A DNA stretch of 64,000 bases, taken from Escherichia phage ALITA. Of this stretch, positions 50,895 through 58,539 are shown piece by piece. How positions within the stretch are numbered: position 1 is the first letter of the stretch; the number at the start of each line of letters is the position of its first letter. A program made the position numbers and the translations under genes. The notes beneath the pieces are model-generated. The model was not told the origin of the DNA, searched no databases, and saw only the letters and a list, made by a program, of their open reading frames with translations. The DNA is taken from sequence record PP359570. The stretch is one strand, 5' to 3'.

Positions 50895-51185
50895 ATGAAC
50901 ATCACACTAGCAACTAAGAATATTACAGAAACTTTTGATGGTTTTGGCATTATTATTGCTGTTCATGGGCATAACGAAAAATGGTTAGCCTCTTTTGAAG
51001 AGGACAAAGAACGCAATGTACGTTTGAATGCACCAATCAAAGTTTTACACCAGGTAGGTGAGAATAAGAAACAATGGAGATCATACAAAGAGTGGAACAT
51101 TACGAACGAGTTAATACACAAACTTGACAAAGTGATAAACATGTTCGACAATGCACCAAGCAGTGCAAAACGTGTTTTACTATAA
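50895..51185 (+). CDS. Hypothetical early protein
   Basis: 96 aa, SD AAGAGG. Confidence 0.5.
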   Translation: MNITLATKNITETFDGFGIIIAVHGHNEKWLASFEEDKERNVRLNAPIKVLHQVGENKKQWRSYKEWNITNELIHKLDKVINMFDNAPSSAKRVLL

Positions 51186-51196
51186 AGGAGAGTGAT

Positions 51197-51550
51197 ATGA
51201 AAATTGTACACGATGAAATTCAATTTGAAGACAGTGATCTTCTTGATCTGGATGTGACACTAAGTAAACTGATCTACAACGCACTTTCTGCATATCGTGC
51301 AAAAGTGATAGCCACAAACAATGTTAAAATTCCTAGTGGGTTACTTCGTCGGATGTACCCACACGCTAAAGGTGACTATCTACCTTATATGGAAGAACGA
51401 GCAGCAGAACACTGGTTAGAAATTCTTGAAAAAATGGAGTCCTCTTTTAAAGATTCAACTCCACCGGAAGAAGTTAATGAAAAACAACGGCAAGAGCGTT
51501 TAGAAGGTCGTATTTTGTTTGCTAAGTATTTCCATAATTTGTGGAGCTAA
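51197..51550 (+). CDS. Hypothetical protein
   Basis: 117 aa, SD AAGGAG. Confidence 0.5.
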   Translation: MKIVHDEIQFEDSDLLDLDVTLSKLIYNALSAYRAKVIATNNVKIPSGLLRRMYPHAKGDYLPYMEERAAEHWLEILEKMESSFKDSTPPEEVNEKQRQERLEGRILFAKYFHNLWS

Positions 51551-53126: not shown

Positions 53127-54254
53127 ATGAAATACACGATTTATGGTGATATTGTAAGTGTAAATAAAGATATGGGCGTGGAATCTAACTATCTTCCACC
53201 TGGATTCTATACTGTTAGTCGTGATCCCCTTGGCAATTATTTTTTAAGCCGTGGTAATCTAACAGGTGTACCGGATGTTTTGTATGGTGAAACAGAAAAA
53301 CGAGCAAATCACGTTATCCGTACATTCCATCGCCGGAGTGCACAAGGTAAAAACACAGGCTTGCTTCTGACAGGAACTAAGGGCAGTGGTAAAACTATGT
53401 TAGCCAAACTCATTAGTCGTGACCTTGTAGAAGAAGGTATTCCAACTATTATGGTTACTCAAGCCTACAGCGATGCTAATTTCATTGAACTTATTAGCAA
53501 GATCACCGACAAAGCAGTGATTATTTTTGACGAGTTTGATAAAGTATATGAGAAGAAACAAGATCAAGAAGCACTTCTCACTTTGTTAGATGGTACTGGG
53601 AGTGGTAATAAACTGTTTATTCTAACTAAAAACAGTGGTTTTATCTCTGAATTCTTTTTAAATCGTCCTAGTCGTGTGTTTTATAATTTTAATTATGATA
53701 AAATCTCACTAGAAACTATGATTGACTATTTAGATAAAAACTTGGATAACAAAGCACACTTTGATAATTTCCAAAGGCTTTGGGATGTAAGTTTAGAGTT
53801 GTCCTTTGATGTGATCCAAGGTATAGTAGAAGAACTTAATTTCTACCCTGATTTATCCTTTAAAGAATGCATCTCTATGATGGGCGTTTCTTTGGGTGGT
53901 GGTAATAAATGGGATATCAGCAGCGTTGTTATTAATGGAAAACTTCAGAAAGTTAGCTGGGTATCTAGTTGGCATAACTTCACACCTGCAATCTTCTTAG
54001 GTGGCTCGTGCACACTAGACGTGTACTTGTCATCTCCAAGTGATGCAGACTCTAAAGAAGCCCTTGCTAATAGCTCTTACGTGGTTTTTGATGATGAAGG
54101 CGATGCTCGAATTCCATTGAATGCGACAAAAATGAAAGCAGATCTTATTACAGGCGGTAAAATCGTTGTGTTTAGTGATGATCCAGAAGATTCTTTCCGT
54201 ATTGTTCTGGAACCAACTATCACCAATGGTGCAACTTTGGCAAGCGTGTTTTAA
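53127..54254 (+). CDS. P-loop AAA-type ATPase (paralog of 36972-38132)
   Basis: 375 aa; Walker A LLTGTKGSGKT, Walker B IIFDEFDK; co-linear similarity to the minus-strand paralog. Confidence 0.75.
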   Translation: MKYTIYGDIVSVNKDMGVESNYLPPGFYTVSRDPLGNYFLSRGNLTGVPDVLYGETEKRANHVIRTFHRRSAQGKNTGLLLTGTKGSGKTMLAKLISRDLVEEGIPTIMVTQAYSDANFIELISKITDKAVIIFDEFDKVYEKKQDQEALLTLLDGTGSGNKLFILTKNSGFISEFFLNRPSRVFYNFNYDKISLETMIDYLDKNLDNKAHFDNFQRLWDVSLELSFDVIQGIVEELNFYPDLSFKECISMMGVSLGGGNKWDISSVVINGKLQKVSWVSSWHNFTPAIFLGGSCTLDVYLSSPSDADSKEALANSSYVVFDDEGDARIPLNATKMKADLITGGKIVVFSDDPEDSFRIVLEPTITNGATLASVF

Positions 54255-54268
54255 GTAAGCCAGCAAAT

Positions 54269-54295
54269 AAAAACCCGCTTCGGCGGGTTTTCTTG
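54269..54295 (+). terminator. Intrinsic terminator
   Basis: AAAAACCCGC-TTCG-GCGGGTTTTCTTG. Confidence 0.75.
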
Positions 54296-54328: not shown

Positions 54329-55735
54329 ATGCCAGCACCAAAATCATGGGAACAATATAAAGAAGAATTAACACCCCTTGCTAAAAATCACAACATTCAG
54401 ATTCTGGGTTATATTGGTGAATGGAAAGGGAGCAAGACTAAACTTAAGCTATCTTGCTCTGATCATGGGGAGTGGGAAAGTACCATAATCAATAGCTTTA
54501 AAACTAAAGGCGGTAAATGTTGCCCCGATTGCAATGGTCGTAGAAAAGTAACAGAAGAAAAGGAATGTATTTCCCTTGTTGATGTTGCTAAAGAAAGAGG
54601 GTTTACTTTTATAGGTCTTGCCGAAGAGTGGCGAGGTGTGCTAACAAAAATCCGCATAGTTTGCCCTAAACATGGAGAGTGGAACACCACGACCATTAGT
54701 GGTTTTAGGAAGGGACGTGGTTGTCCGGCATGTGCAAGTAATAAGCCGTTAACATGGGAAACAGAATTACCGATCTTGGAAGAGATAGCACAGAAGAAGG
54801 GGTATCAGGTGTTAGGGTACGTGGGAGAATGGAAAGGGATTGATACAAAACTTGATTTGTTGTGTCACTGTGGTAACAGATGGGATACTACAAGTATTAA
54901 CAGTTTTAAACATGATCATGGTTGTCCTTTATGTGGGTATGAGAATACAAGGAAGGCACAAACAATACCCGACGATCAACATATTGCAGATTTCTTTTCT
55001 ACAGGGAAATTTAAGGAAGGCACTATCTTTACCAATACAGGGAAACGTAGTTGTAGTAAAAACAAGGACATTATCTGGATGATCGAATGTCCTGTTTGCT
55101 CTCATGATGAGTATGTGCAAGCAGGTGTATGTGATGGTAAGTTTTATATGACACGTAGCGATCTTAAGGCTGGACACTTGCCCTGCCGCTGTGCAACTAA
55201 CTCTCATTATACAGAAAATCAGATTACCTACAGGGTAAAAAAGGAAGTAGAAGGGAGAGGGTATGTCTGGGTAGGTTGGATCGGTAAACCGTCTATAAGA
55301 CTGGGTAATTTTAAATATCTTTGTCTTGTTCATGGGGAACAAATTGGTAGTGCTTATCGCTTACTATATCAGGATAATGGTTGTCCACAATGTGCAGGTC
55401 ATAGTCAGCAGCAATTGTATGTTAATGTTGTTAAAGATAATGGTATTATAGTTGCTCTTAAGTTTGGTATATCTAAAGATAGTGCTAGGAGATTAAACAT
55501 TCAAAATAGGCGTAATATGTTTTTTATGGAGCGTATTTGTTTATATGATTTTAGTACAGTGAAGCAGTGTAAGGCTGCTGAAAGAGCTATAAAGAAAAAA
55601 TTAAAAACTGGTATCTTAACAGCAAGAGAGTTGAAAGATGGTTATACAGAAACAGTAAGTGTTTCTGATTTGGAAAATCTTCAAAAAATTATTACACAAT
55701 ATGGTGGCAAATTAGTATACAGTAAGGAGGTGTAA
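54329..55735 (+). CDS. Zinc-ribbon repeat protein with C-terminal T5orf172/GIY-YIG-like domain
   Basis: 468 aa; four or more repeats of C..HGEW...F...GCP.C; C-terminal LYVNVVKDNGIIVALKFGIS...RRL block. Confidence 0.55.
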   Translation: MPAPKSWEQYKEELTPLAKNHNIQILGYIGEWKGSKTKLKLSCSDHGEWESTIINSFKTKGGKCCPDCNGRRKVTEEKECISLVDVAKERGFTFIGLAEEWRGVLTKIRIVCPKHGEWNTTTISGFRKGRGCPACASNKPLTWETELPILEEIAQKKGYQVLGYVGEWKGIDTKLDLLCHCGNRWDTTSINSFKHDHGCPLCGYENTRKAQTIPDDQHIADFFSTGKFKEGTIFTNTGKRSCSKNKDIIWMIECPVCSHDEYVQAGVCDGKFYMTRSDLKAGHLPCRCATNSHYTENQITYRVKKEVEGRGYVWVGWIGKPSIRLGNFKYLCLVHGEQIGSAYRLLYQDNGCPQCAGHSQQQLYVNVVKDNGIIVALKFGISKDSARRLNIQNRRNMFFMERICLYDFSTVKQCKAAERAIKKKLKTGILTARELKDGYTETVSVSDLENLQKIITQYGGKLVYSKEV

Positions 55736-56287
55736 ATGCGGATTACTGATAAGTATGTGTTCTTCTTCTCGGCAAAAGATGAATTTAGCAACTGGTATCT
55801 ATCATCTTTTATTGAACCTTTAGCTCCCAAGTATAATAATTCTATTACAAGTTCTGTTGAATTTACTTGTGTGGAACAATATATGATGTGGAGAAAAGCA
55901 TGTTTGTTTTATGATTACAGTATTGCATCTTCTATTTTAACCGGAGATCTAAGATATACAGGAGAAAAAGAACAAGCATATTATAAACGACTAGGCAGAT
56001 TAGTTAAAGATTATGATGAAGATACCTGGGCTTCTTTACGGGAGAAGATTGTCAAGCGTGGTTTGTATCTTAAATACACACAAAATGAAGATCTCAAAAA
56101 TAAACTTATCGCTTACGCAGATAAGGAGTTCGTAGAGGCAAGCCCCTATGATTCTATTTATGGTATCAAAATGGGGATGTGGGATCGGGACGTGGAAAAT
56201 AAGGATTGTTGGAAAGGGCAAAATCTTTTAGGAAAATGGCATACAGACCTTGCTGTTTATCTAAAATCACAATCTGATATTTCCTGA
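55736..56287 (+). CDS. NADAR (YbiA/DUF1768)-family protein
   Basis: 183 aa; strong SD AAGGAGG; blocks FFFSAKDEFSNW, VEQYMMWRKACLF, LGRLV, FVEASPYDSIYGIKMG alignable to E. coli YbiA. Confidence 0.75.
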   Translation: MRITDKYVFFFSAKDEFSNWYLSSFIEPLAPKYNNSITSSVEFTCVEQYMMWRKACLFYDYSIASSILTGDLRYTGEKEQAYYKRLGRLVKDYDEDTWASLREKIVKRGLYLKYTQNEDLKNKLIAYADKEFVEASPYDSIYGIKMGMWDRDVENKDCWKGQNLLGKWHTDLAVYLKSQSDIS

Positions 56288-56506
56288 TATTTTGAAAATT
56301 TTTATTTTTATAAAAAGGGGTGTGGGTTTCATGTACGGAAATCCACCCTCTGAATAATATATCCAGAGTAAGTAGTATTCTGTACTCTGTTAATAAAGTA
56401 TTTAATTTGTTTGTTGGATTATGGTGGCTGATCTTTAAAAGGCATACTATCTCTTAACTACTACTTATAACAAAACAGTAAAATCCTTTTTATAAAAGTA
56501 CAAAAT

Positions 56507-56703
56507 TATTTAAAGTTTTTACAGATTTTCGGGTACAAATTTTGAAAATGAAAAGTTCAAGTTTGGTCAAAATTATTTAAAGTTTTTGTACGTATTTCTG
56601 TCCAGATTTTGAAAATGAAAACTTCAATTTTTTAAAAATTCCCCAGTTTATTTAAAGTTTTTTTGCCTTTTTCCGTAGAAAAATCAAAAATGAAAAGTTC
56701 AAT
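56507..56703. repeat. Three tandem direct repeats (~55-60 bp) in noncoding region
   Basis: Each unit starts TTATTTAAAGTTTTT and ends GAAAATGAAAAGTTCAA with a variable centre. Confidence 0.8.
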
Positions 56704-56724
56704 TTCGTGTTTTTATAGGTGTGT

Positions 56725-56841
56725 TAATGAGAATCATTTTCGTTTGTAAATGAGAATCATTATCATTTAACTATGTAAGTGATAATCATTCTCAGTAAGA
56801 GAATGAGAATCATTAGCAAATGAGAATTTTTCTCATTTACA
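56725..56841. promoter_or_regulatory. Cluster of five palindromic sites with Fur-box-like core (candidate repressor sites or origin iterons)
   Basis: AATGAGAATCATT variants; AATGAGAATCATTATCATT and GTGATAATCATTCTCAG; last copy is perfect inverted repeat AAATGAGAA-TTT-TTCTCATTT. Confidence 0.6.
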
Positions 56842-57098
56842 GAATAACGCGCAGGGGCGGTGTTTGTCTCGCGCTCCCGTGTCCCCTCGCCATACAATAA
56901 GAATAGCATAACCAATAACAAAAGCAAGCGATTATTTTTATCTTTACATTTCTTTACAAATTTATTTTAGACGAGCTACCGGCGATCAACCTTCCAACCA
57001 GTGCCCCCTGGTATGTTAGCCCCGCCTTTACGCCGTGGGGTGGCGTTTCCTCTTCTGTATGTAAAACAGTATAAGCCCGATCCCTGGGCTTGTCAAGA

Positions 57099-57365
57099 TT
57101 ATTTTTTGTTTTCTTGCCAGGATAGGACACCTAACCAAAAATACATGTCGCCCCGCGCCCCTGGTGGGATCTTGCTTTCCCCGCCGCCACTGCAAGCCCA
57201 TAAATAACCATCAGCGAACGGATCAAAGTGATCTATCTCTTCCACCTTATGATCGCCCAGGTTGAGAACGGTTTCAACCTTTAAGCCCGTTGCGCTTGCT
57301 ACCTGGTGCACCGTGCCGCCTTGCCAGCCCAGTGAGTGCATGAGATGTAAAGAAGTATTTGTCAT
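57099..57365 (-). CDS. Hypothetical protein, divergent from early array, GC-rich codon usage
   Basis: 88-aa ORF; hairpin AGCCCAGGGATCGGGCT downstream. Confidence 0.4.
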   Translation of the reverse strand: MTNTSLHLMHSLGWQGGTVHQVASATGLKVETVLNLGDHKVEEIDHFDPFADGYLWACSGGGESKIPPGARGDMYFWLGVLSWQENKK

Positions 57366-57736
57366 GGTATCGCCCTTTCTTTGTTGTGCGCCCTGGTTGG
57401 CGCGGTAGAAAGATGATAGCCGTTTCCTTCATATATAGCAAGCAAAAAAGAAATGAAAAAAAGATTAAAAAATGGTTGACGTTCCTCACCTGGTAGCGTA
57501 GTATTCATCTTGTCGAGGGGGGCAAGACACAACGACAATAAACAATAGGCGGGTGCAATGCAAGACGGGCAAAGGTGAGGATCTCCACAATCCACCGTCA
57601 CAATAACATTACTTATAAAAGGTTGATAACGATGATCAAGAAAGAAAATAGCTTGACGGTTGGAACGATTAACGCTATCATTCTTGCCGTTCCATTTTGG
57701 ATTGTAGTTGCGGTTATTATTTTCTAAAAAAATATT

Positions 57737-57764
57737 CTTGACAACGTTTTTTAATCTGATAAGA
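57737..57764 (+). promoter_or_regulatory. Sigma70-like promoter
   Basis: TTGACA-16-TAAGAT, followed by leader hairpin 57775-57794. Confidence 0.6.
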
Positions 57765-57817
57765 TGTATCACATAGGGCGGCAATAGTGCCGCTCATAAC
57801 AGAAGAGAGAAATAATC

Positions 57818-58090
57818 ATGGCATCATATAGCGCATCAATGATTGTAAAGGGTATCACTGGTAAACCTATGCGCGGTGGCGGATCTTTCGCTAACATCAA
57901 TATTGATGGACGTTTATCCCTGGACGCAGCGATCACAGTGGCACGGGAAACATTTAAAAAAGAATGTAATTTCAATAAACAAGATTATCTCGGTTTTGCT
58001 ATTGAAAAAACCGCGCGCTTTGTGGATTATAAAAGCCCGAAAATGATCGACACTACACTAAAAGCGCAAGATGTAGCGTTTTTGCTTTAA
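57818..58090 (+). CDS. Hypothetical early protein
   Basis: 90 aa; promoter-hairpin-SD unit upstream. Confidence 0.55.
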   Translation: MASYSASMIVKGITGKPMRGGGSFANINIDGRLSLDAAITVARETFKKECNFNKQDYLGFAIEKTARFVDYKSPKMIDTTLKAQDVAFLL

Positions 58091-58093
58091 GAC

Positions 58094-58122
58094 TTGACAC
58101 TGAAAAATAATTTGATAATATA
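58094..58122 (+). promoter_or_regulatory. Sigma70-like promoter
   Basis: TTGACA-17-TAATAT, leader hairpin GGCGGGGAAATGGTTTCCCGCC at 58133-58154. Confidence 0.6.
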
Positions 58123-58176
58123 TACCACATAAGGCGGGGAAATGGTTTCCCGCCAAATCAAAGAAAGGGTAATGCA

Positions 58177-58539
58177 ATGAGCAAGCAAATCAATACTATC
58201 ATGTTTAATCTGGTATCTTTCCGCGATGACGTGAAAAACCTTTCGCGTGATGCAGTGGATGCACGGATCGAAAGCTATCGCACACAGATCGCAACGTTAC
58301 CGCTGAAACGTGATCAACATGCCGCTAATATGATGCTTGATGCTATGATTAAAAAGATGATTCAATGTGATCTTACCCTGGCTTATGAATATGCTGGCGA
58401 TCTCTTTGTAACATATAGCAAGCCCGTTCCAGGTATGAGCACCACGGAAGAATTGCATGCCTTAAATCTGCGACAAGATGCATGGGATAACATGCGCCGT
58501 GTTATGGTATGGGTAGAAAGCGGTAAAATTTACGAATAA
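58177..58539 (+). CDS. Hypothetical early protein
   Basis: 120-aa ORF. Confidence 0.55.
   Translation: MSKQINTIMFNLVSFRDDVKNLSRDAVDARIESYRTQIATLPLKRDQHAANMMLDAMIKKMIQCDLTLAYEYAGDLFVTYSKPVPGMSTTEELHALNLRQDAWDNMRRVMVWVESGKIYE

Follow-up and report, generated by a model that had tools for sequence, protein, structure and literature searches.

An orphan NADAR gene of Escherichia phage ALITA and its relation to the anti-DarTG1 factor AdfN^Bas60

NADAR enzymes in the conflict with DarT1

DarT1 ADP-ribosylates the N2 position of guanine in DNA and blocks phage replication (PMC11257639, PMC11543638). The antitoxin associated with it, DarG1, is a NADAR protein of the BC4488 subfamily, represented for example in E. 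coli C7 and G. lovleyi, and hydrolyses the ADP-ribose linked to N2 of guanine. In C7 DarG1, E88, K95 and D171 are required for both guanine de-ADP-ribosylation and rescue from DarT1, while K115, the counterpart of K75 in the Phytophthora nicotianae enzyme (PnNADAR), is required for rescue only (PMC11543638). Structurally, PnNADAR (PDB 8BAU) holds ADP-ribose through E43 and E125 at the distal ribose, through K50, R79, W89, R93, W133 and D130 at the phosphates, through Y84 stacked on the adenine and through D86 at the proximal ribose, with K75 nearby (Schuller et al., Mol Cell 2023, PMC11543638). The third catalytic position separates the families: the 'NADAR' and YbiA families have Glu there, DarG1 has Asp, and phage NADARs of the T4 type have His (PMC11543638).

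Phages use the same domain against this defence. The anti-DarT factor NADAR, AdfN, was found in T4 as gp30.3 by Johannesman, Carlson and LeRoux (bioRxiv 2024, PMC11257639; Nat Commun 2025;16:1598, PMC11825919), and alanine mutants of T4 AdfN at E36 and K43 lose anti-DarTG1 function (PMC11257639). A search of the BASEL collection then yielded AdfN^Bas60, a NADAR common to phages Bas60, Bas61 and Bas62 (PMC11825919). Expressed from a plasmid, AdfN^Bas60 neutralises DarT1 toxicity in uninfected E. coli and brings three DarTG1-sensitive phages, RB69, T5 and Bas25, back to full titre where the host carries DarTG1, and it leaves T5 plaquing on DarTG2 unchanged (PMC11825919). Conditional essentiality on DarTG1 has been confirmed for T4 adfN only (HIDEN-SEQ preprint). 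For AdfN^Bas60 itself, we found in the literature no in vitro assay, no catalytic mutants and no deletion from a native phage (Bas60-62 and relatives), and the published evidence is ectopic expression.

Activity on guanine-ADPr in vitro does not always translate into protection. AdfN^T4, unlike AdfN^Bas60, cannot neutralise DarT1 in uninfected cells (PMC11825919), and neither can E. coli K-12 YbiA (PDB 2B3W), a riboflavin-intermediate N-glycosidase encoded in a chromosomal dinG/rhlE/ybiB context. [quoted passage not shown]

The gene, its fold and its active site

The gene considered here lies in a 64,000-nt stretch of DNA from Escherichia phage ALITA (sequence record PP359570), the whole of which is referred to as the window. 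It is an ATG-started ORF of 183 codons plus stop, and its start directly adjoins the TAA of the upstream gene (55733-55735). Features of the locus are collected in Table 1. In comparisons with three relatives, synonymous codon changes outnumber non-synonymous ones (11 versus 2, 10 versus 4 and 11 versus 5), which identifies the ORF as a gene under purifying selection.

Profile searches confirm a genuine gene for a clear NADAR-domain protein, as the initial annotation had proposed. Residues 13-168 align with positions 9-154 of the 163-position Pfam model NADAR PF08719 (DUF1768); this match has E=3.4e-36 and, at 125.4 bits, exceeds the gathering score of 35.1 bits. PHROG 1017, a family of unknown function, also matches, with E=6.6e-50. 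An AlphaFold2 model built from a 56-sequence alignment reached a mean pLDDT of 97.1 and a pTM of 0.91. When this model was compared with the PDB using Foldseek, only two matches were significant, 8BAU (E=3.9e-9, TM 0.77) and YbiA 2B3W (E=4.6e-6, TM 0.69/0.74), and the YbiA-like alpha-helical core fold is present.

Table 1. Features at and around the NADAR gene, numbered from the first letter of the window
Feature	Position	Strand	Description and basis
Intrinsic-terminator-like hairpin with T-run	54270..54291	+	3' of the AAA ATPase gene, 5' of the endonuclease-like/NADAR pair; scan, -15.9 kcal/mol, z -3.6; annotated terminator in phage Paula
CapR/T5orf172 protein gene	54329..55735	+	468 aa, homing-endonuclease-like, stop adjoins NADAR start; Pfam CapR x4 (zinc-finger repeats), weak C-terminal T5orf172 (GIY-YIG-like); PHROG 681 'endonuclease'
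Shine-Dalgarno AAGGAGGT	55724..55731	+	Five bases 5' of the NADAR ATG, within the 3' end of the upstream gene; read from sequence
adfN-type NADAR gene	55736..56287	+	ORF, Pfam NADAR, 99% aa identity to the Bas60 protein, AlphaFold2, Foldseek
Codon E47	55874..55876	+	PnNADAR E43 (phmmer alignment to 8BAU), C7 DarG1 E88, T4 AdfN E36, which coordinate the distal ribose; aligns with the Glu of T4 gp30.3 and YbiA
Codon K54	55895..55897	+	PnNADAR K50 (phmmer alignment to 8BAU), C7 K95, T4 K43, essential phosphate-coordinating residues
Residue K84			PnNADAR K75 (phmmer alignment to 8BAU)
Residue R88			PnNADAR R79 (phmmer alignment to 8BAU)
Residue Y93			PnNADAR Y84 (phmmer alignment to 8BAU)
Residue E95			PnNADAR D86, conservative (phmmer alignment to 8BAU)
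Residue W98			PnNADAR W89 (phmmer alignment to 8BAU)
Residue R102			PnNADAR R93 (phmmer alignment to 8BAU)
Codon E134	56135..56137	+	PnNADAR E125 (phmmer alignment to 8BAU); Asp (D171) in DarG1, His in T4-type phage NADARs
Codon D139	56150..56152	+	PnNADAR D130, water-mediated pyrophosphate contact (phmmer alignment to 8BAU)
Residue Y142			PnNADAR W133, conservative (phmmer alignment to 8BAU)
Hairpin without T-run	56316..56351	+	29 nt past the NADAR stop; 81-nt stretch folds at -21 kcal/mol, z -2.3; almost invariant in four relatives
Three direct repeats of ~70 nt	56487-56705		ORF-poor stretch after the NADAR gene
Lone 88-aa ORF	57099-57365	minus	Between plus-strand gene blocks; PHROG 19316, function unknown

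Sequence comparison gives the same order of likeness. With phmmer against PDB sequences, 8BAU is found at E=6.5e-13 and YbiA at E=0.037 over 59 residues. The alignment with YbiA that the initial annotation had drawn by eye therefore holds at the level of the family, where the blocks with Glu, Lys, Trp, Glu and Asp line up at 26% identity in the multiple alignment; YbiA is a distant relative and not the closest one, and the best match among solved structures is 8BAU. The latter is a eukaryotic protein with 28% identity and insertions at other places, and the additional segments of the phage protein, around residues 28-38 and 74-80, are shared in the multiple alignment only with phage relatives.

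Mapped through the phmmer alignment (8BAU chain numbering equals that of the paper plus 2, an offset confirmed at residues E, K, E, D and W), all ADP-ribose contacts of 8BAU are kept in the phage protein, two of them conservatively. In an alignment of this protein with 55 homologues at 36-62% identity, E47, K54, K84, W98, E134 and D139 are invariant and R88 is nearly so. The seven-residue spacing of the catalytic Glu and Lys in PnNADAR, C7 DarG1 and T4 AdfN recurs at E47 and K54. The initial annotation had named missing catalytic residues as the observation that would speak against its reading; none is missing, and E47, K54 and E134 align with mutationally validated residues.

Compared with DarG1, the phage protein has the same fold, a predicted activity of the same kind, and in common the Glu, the Lys and the lysine that corresponds to C7 K115. 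It differs in carrying Glu in place of Asp at the third catalytic position and in lacking the N-terminal beta1-beta2-alpha1 extension: its core begins at about residue 6, with the first strand at 7-10 and the Pfam core from 13. It also differs in being an orphan, with no adjacent DarT1 gene; its neighbours are an AAA ATPase, the CapR/T5orf172 gene and small ORFs, none with an ART domain. AdfN^T4 is likewise an orphan phage NADAR that counters DarTG1 and has the Glu/Lys pair in common, yet the two align at only 17% identity, with the T4-type His facing E134.

The decisive likeness is to AdfN^Bas60. The protein is identical at 181 of 183 positions, with no difference in length, to bas60_0111 (QXV83846.1) of Escherichia phage PaulScherrer/Bas60 (MZ501100), and the vB_EcoM_PHB05 protein is 100% identical to that of ALITA. 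The two conservative substitutions, A99T and S178T, fall at no mapped contact position. Around the gene, a 3.5-kb stretch is 92-94% identical to many E. coli myophages of the genus Justusliebigvirus (Stephanstirmvirinae) of about 147 kb, Bas60 among them. With about 94% identity in the surrounding DNA, ALITA and Bas60 are separate isolates or species within one genus-level group, and the gene order (ATPase, CapR endonuclease-like gene, NADAR, ORF-poor repeat region) is the same.

These results support the gene as an orthologue of the published anti-DarTG1 factor AdfN^Bas60, whose effect is already known. The initial annotation had read the protein as removing ADP-ribose from guanine in DNA and so opposing DarT-type toxins. 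With only two differences, both away from the contacts, that hypothesis has in effect already been tested and published; it stands for DarT1, which modifies guanine, by way of the 99%-identical protein, and does not extend to DarT in general, as there is no effect on DarTG2, which modifies thymine. Very probably, then, the ALITA gene encodes an orphan, phage-borne NADAR ADP-ribosylglycohydrolase of the AdfN^Bas60 type that reverses guanine ADP-ribosylation by DarT1. Counting against this reading are the two residues that differ from the tested protein, the restriction of the published evidence to ectopic expression, the failure of some NADARs with guanine-ADPr activity in vitro to protect cells, and a family-profile score discussed below.

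A reaction sequence can be proposed from homology to 8BAU and C7 DarG1. On infection of E. coli carrying DarTG1, DarT1 would modify guanines of phage DNA at N2 and replication would stop. The phage enzyme would then bind the ADP-ribose, its phosphates contacted by K54, R88, W98, R102 and D139 and its adenine stacked against Y93. Hydrolysis of the bond between ribose and guanine would proceed through E47 and E134 at the distal ribose, together with K54, a step that the phenotype of the orthologue supports. The DNA would thereby return to its unmodified state and replication could proceed. Specificity for guanine-ADPr over thymine-ADPr would follow the in vivo behaviour of the AdfN^Bas60 orthologue. 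The scheme presumes expression in time for replicating DNA to be protected, and under it the gene may be needed by its own phage on such hosts.

Gene neighbourhood and the region downstream

The NADAR gene is the last of a co-directional plus-strand block that starts near 51197, beside a divergent minus-strand block of small ORFs. Its placement at the end of an early operon in the initial annotation is thus borne out as the end of a co-directional gene block, and early expression is plausible. A promoter scan places a TTGACA-17-GACAAT site at 51124-51152, ahead of the block's first ORF. That perfect TTGACA boxes lie between genes is suggestive; the total number of sigma-70-like sites, 29 against a shuffled expectation of 28.3, gives no statistical support for an 'early operon'. 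The terminator-like hairpin inside the block suggests that NADAR forms a two-gene unit with the CapR/T5orf172 gene. Past the NADAR stop, the hairpin without a T-run may mark a weak transcript end or a site of processing. No tRNA genes were found in the window.

The CapR/T5orf172 gene, which adjoins NADAR, is context and not a functional partner. Its length varies among relatives, from 468 aa here and in Bas60 to 390 aa in Paula and 335 aa in SF1-1, and most megablast matches contain a gap of about 230 bp, approximately the size of one repeat, which may reflect a repeat gained or lost. Further upstream, at 53127-54254, lies a 375-aa AAA+ ATPase (PHROG 2376) that relatives label 'FtsH-like protease' or 'ATPase or Zn metalloprotease'. 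In this protein Pfam recognises the AAA module alone (residues 79-170), without a peptidase domain, and the protease label therefore seems unsupported. Shigella phage SF1-1, with a NADAR at 58.7% identity, repeats the order of ATPase, endonuclease-like gene, NADAR and a long gap with few ORFs; Klebsiella phage 05F01, with a NADAR at 60% identity, does not.

About 1.5 kb on the 3' side of the NADAR gene is poor in ORFs and carries repeats. The direct repeats of about 70 nt are followed by at least four copies of a palindromic unit, AATGAGAATCATT, and the whole repeat stretch spans 56487-56841; phage alia annotates it merely as 'repeat_region'. Three of these units, at 56723, 56746 and 56799, resemble a Fur box, each with 3 mismatches to the E. 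coli consensus GATAATGATAATCATTATC; 0.03 such matches are expected in the whole window. Four relatives share 97% identity over the 613 bp at 56288-56900; this matches the conservation of the NADAR gene (96.7-97.6%) and exceeds that of the 3.5-kb query overall (93-94%). The repeat stretch could be a replication origin, a set of iterons for a phage regulator or a group of candidate Fur-binding sites. An Rfam search of 56200-58200 for structured RNA returned only chance-level miRNA and leader matches, far below gathering scores.

Next to the repeats, GC content rises to as much as 0.51 across 56850-57560, compared with about 0.3-0.4 around it. The lone minus-strand ORF within this patch has no Pfam match and nothing significant in a PDB sequence search. 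Bas60 (as bas60_0113), alia and Paula all conserve it. On its 5' side lies a promoter-like site at 57441-57413 and, immediately after the stop codon, a terminator-like hairpin at 57091-57073. Taken together, the patch and its ORF look like a self-contained moron-type insert.

Relatives, substrate range and meaning for the phage

Relatives of the NADAR protein are common among phages. A tblastn search found them in 716 phage records, 55 of which, from Justusliebigvirus, Phapecoctavirus and phi92, reach at least 95% identity. A few Klebsiella, Shigella and Escherichia phages follow at 57-60%, and many large myophages of Staphylococcus, Listeria, Enterococcus, Bacillus and other hosts at 31-45%. 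Bas60-62 are called 'Vequintavirinae' in PMC11825919, while GenBank MZ501100 places Bas60 in Stephanstirmvirinae, Justusliebigvirus; the NADARs of true Vequintavirus-like phages such as A73 and LTH01 are only 38-40% identical. Among cellular genomes, searched with one genome per bacterial or archaeal species, the best relatives reach 35-45% identity. Their taxonomy is scattered (Myxococcota, Clostridia, Paenibacillus and Bacteroidota), and no enterobacterial relative is among the best 80 cellular matches. At no more than 45% identity and with such scatter, no recent cellular donor can be named.

The domain also occurs in defence collections. The protein matches weakly the NCBIfam entry 'DS32_2 NADAR family anti-phage protein', and PADLOC reports PDC-M42C, a candidate defence component, at E=1.9e-34. 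Because the gene sits in a lytic phage, the latter match was taken to reflect the common NADAR domain and not a defence role. NADAR domains thus serve both sides of the conflict between phage and host.

This spread over distant hosts bears on what the enzyme acts on. It would suit a broad nucleic-acid de-ADP-ribosylase directed mainly at other ARTs (toxins that act on cytosine or RNA, for example pierisin/ScARP-like, YarT/Tre23-like or further ART effectors), with DarT1 as one target or a side activity. [quoted passage not shown] However, the 99%-identical protein is strongly anti-DarTG1 and restores full titre. The neighbours of two myxobacterial relatives were also searched with Pfam for a YarT-like ART; one GreA/GreB gene was returned and nothing else, and no partner ART was recognisable. 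To our knowledge, there is no Pfam model for YarT. On balance, a main role against other ARTs is unlikely.

Database labels point to quite another function. Homologues in phages are called hypothetical, DUF1768, NADAR, YbiA, 'swarming motility protein' or 'GTP cyclohydrolase II'. Several stand-alone genes of NADAR size bear the label 'GTP cyclohydrolase II' or 'GTP cyclohydrolase', probably carried over from RibA-NADAR fusion proteins. The GenBank label of bas60_0111 is 'putative YbiA-like N-glycosidase', the EC_OE_11 orthologue is labelled likewise, and JGI names several homologues 'ribA/ribD-fused uncharacterized protein'. The orthologue labels are explained by the NCBIfam model TIGR02464, 'riboflavin biosynthesis intermediates N-glycosidase', which the ALITA protein matches at 110 bits against a cutoff of 73.7. 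Taken literally, these names would make the gene an auxiliary metabolic gene whose product acts, in the manner of YbiA, on reactive intermediates of the riboflavin pathway. Yet TIGR02464 is an 'equivalog_domain' model built before the ADP-ribose activity was known, so its name does not fix the substrate, and since E. coli YbiA itself hydrolyses guanosine-ADPr in vitro, the name does not discriminate between the two functions. Moreover, the gene encodes a stand-alone 183-aa domain without RibA or RibD fusion, direct similarity to YbiA is weak in the phmmer comparison, and no riboflavin-pathway genes occur among the scanned neighbours, several of which have no Pfam match. Finally, the orthologue at 99% identity counteracts a DNA ADP-ribosyltransferase inside cells. 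On these grounds the riboflavin role is very improbable.

Some large phages encode their own ADP-ribosyltransferases. That the enzyme might erase, for regulation and not against defence, marks set by such phage enzymes or by host housekeeping enzymes is suggested by analogy, as in T4 about 3 kb separate gene 30.3 and alt, but with no ART domain in the genes flanking the ALITA NADAR and with a published phenotype that is anti-DarTG1, this idea has next to no probability.

The preferred reading, an orphan NADAR of the AdfN^Bas60 type acting on DarT1-modified guanine, has practical consequences. In this phage group the gene should be annotated accordingly, and not as 'hypothetical', 'YbiA-like N-glycosidase' or 'GTP cyclohydrolase II'. 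Its presence suggests that the phage resists E. coli carrying DarTG1, a prediction relevant to phage therapy and to the prediction of host range. [quoted passage not shown] By analogy with those families, AdfN^Bas60-type enzymes might be broad-spectrum erasers that protect large myophages from several nucleic-acid ART toxins beyond DarT1; we regard this as a tentative proposal with the odds against it. If true, it would explain why related NADARs are found in phages of Staphylococcus, Listeria, Enterococcus and Bacillus.
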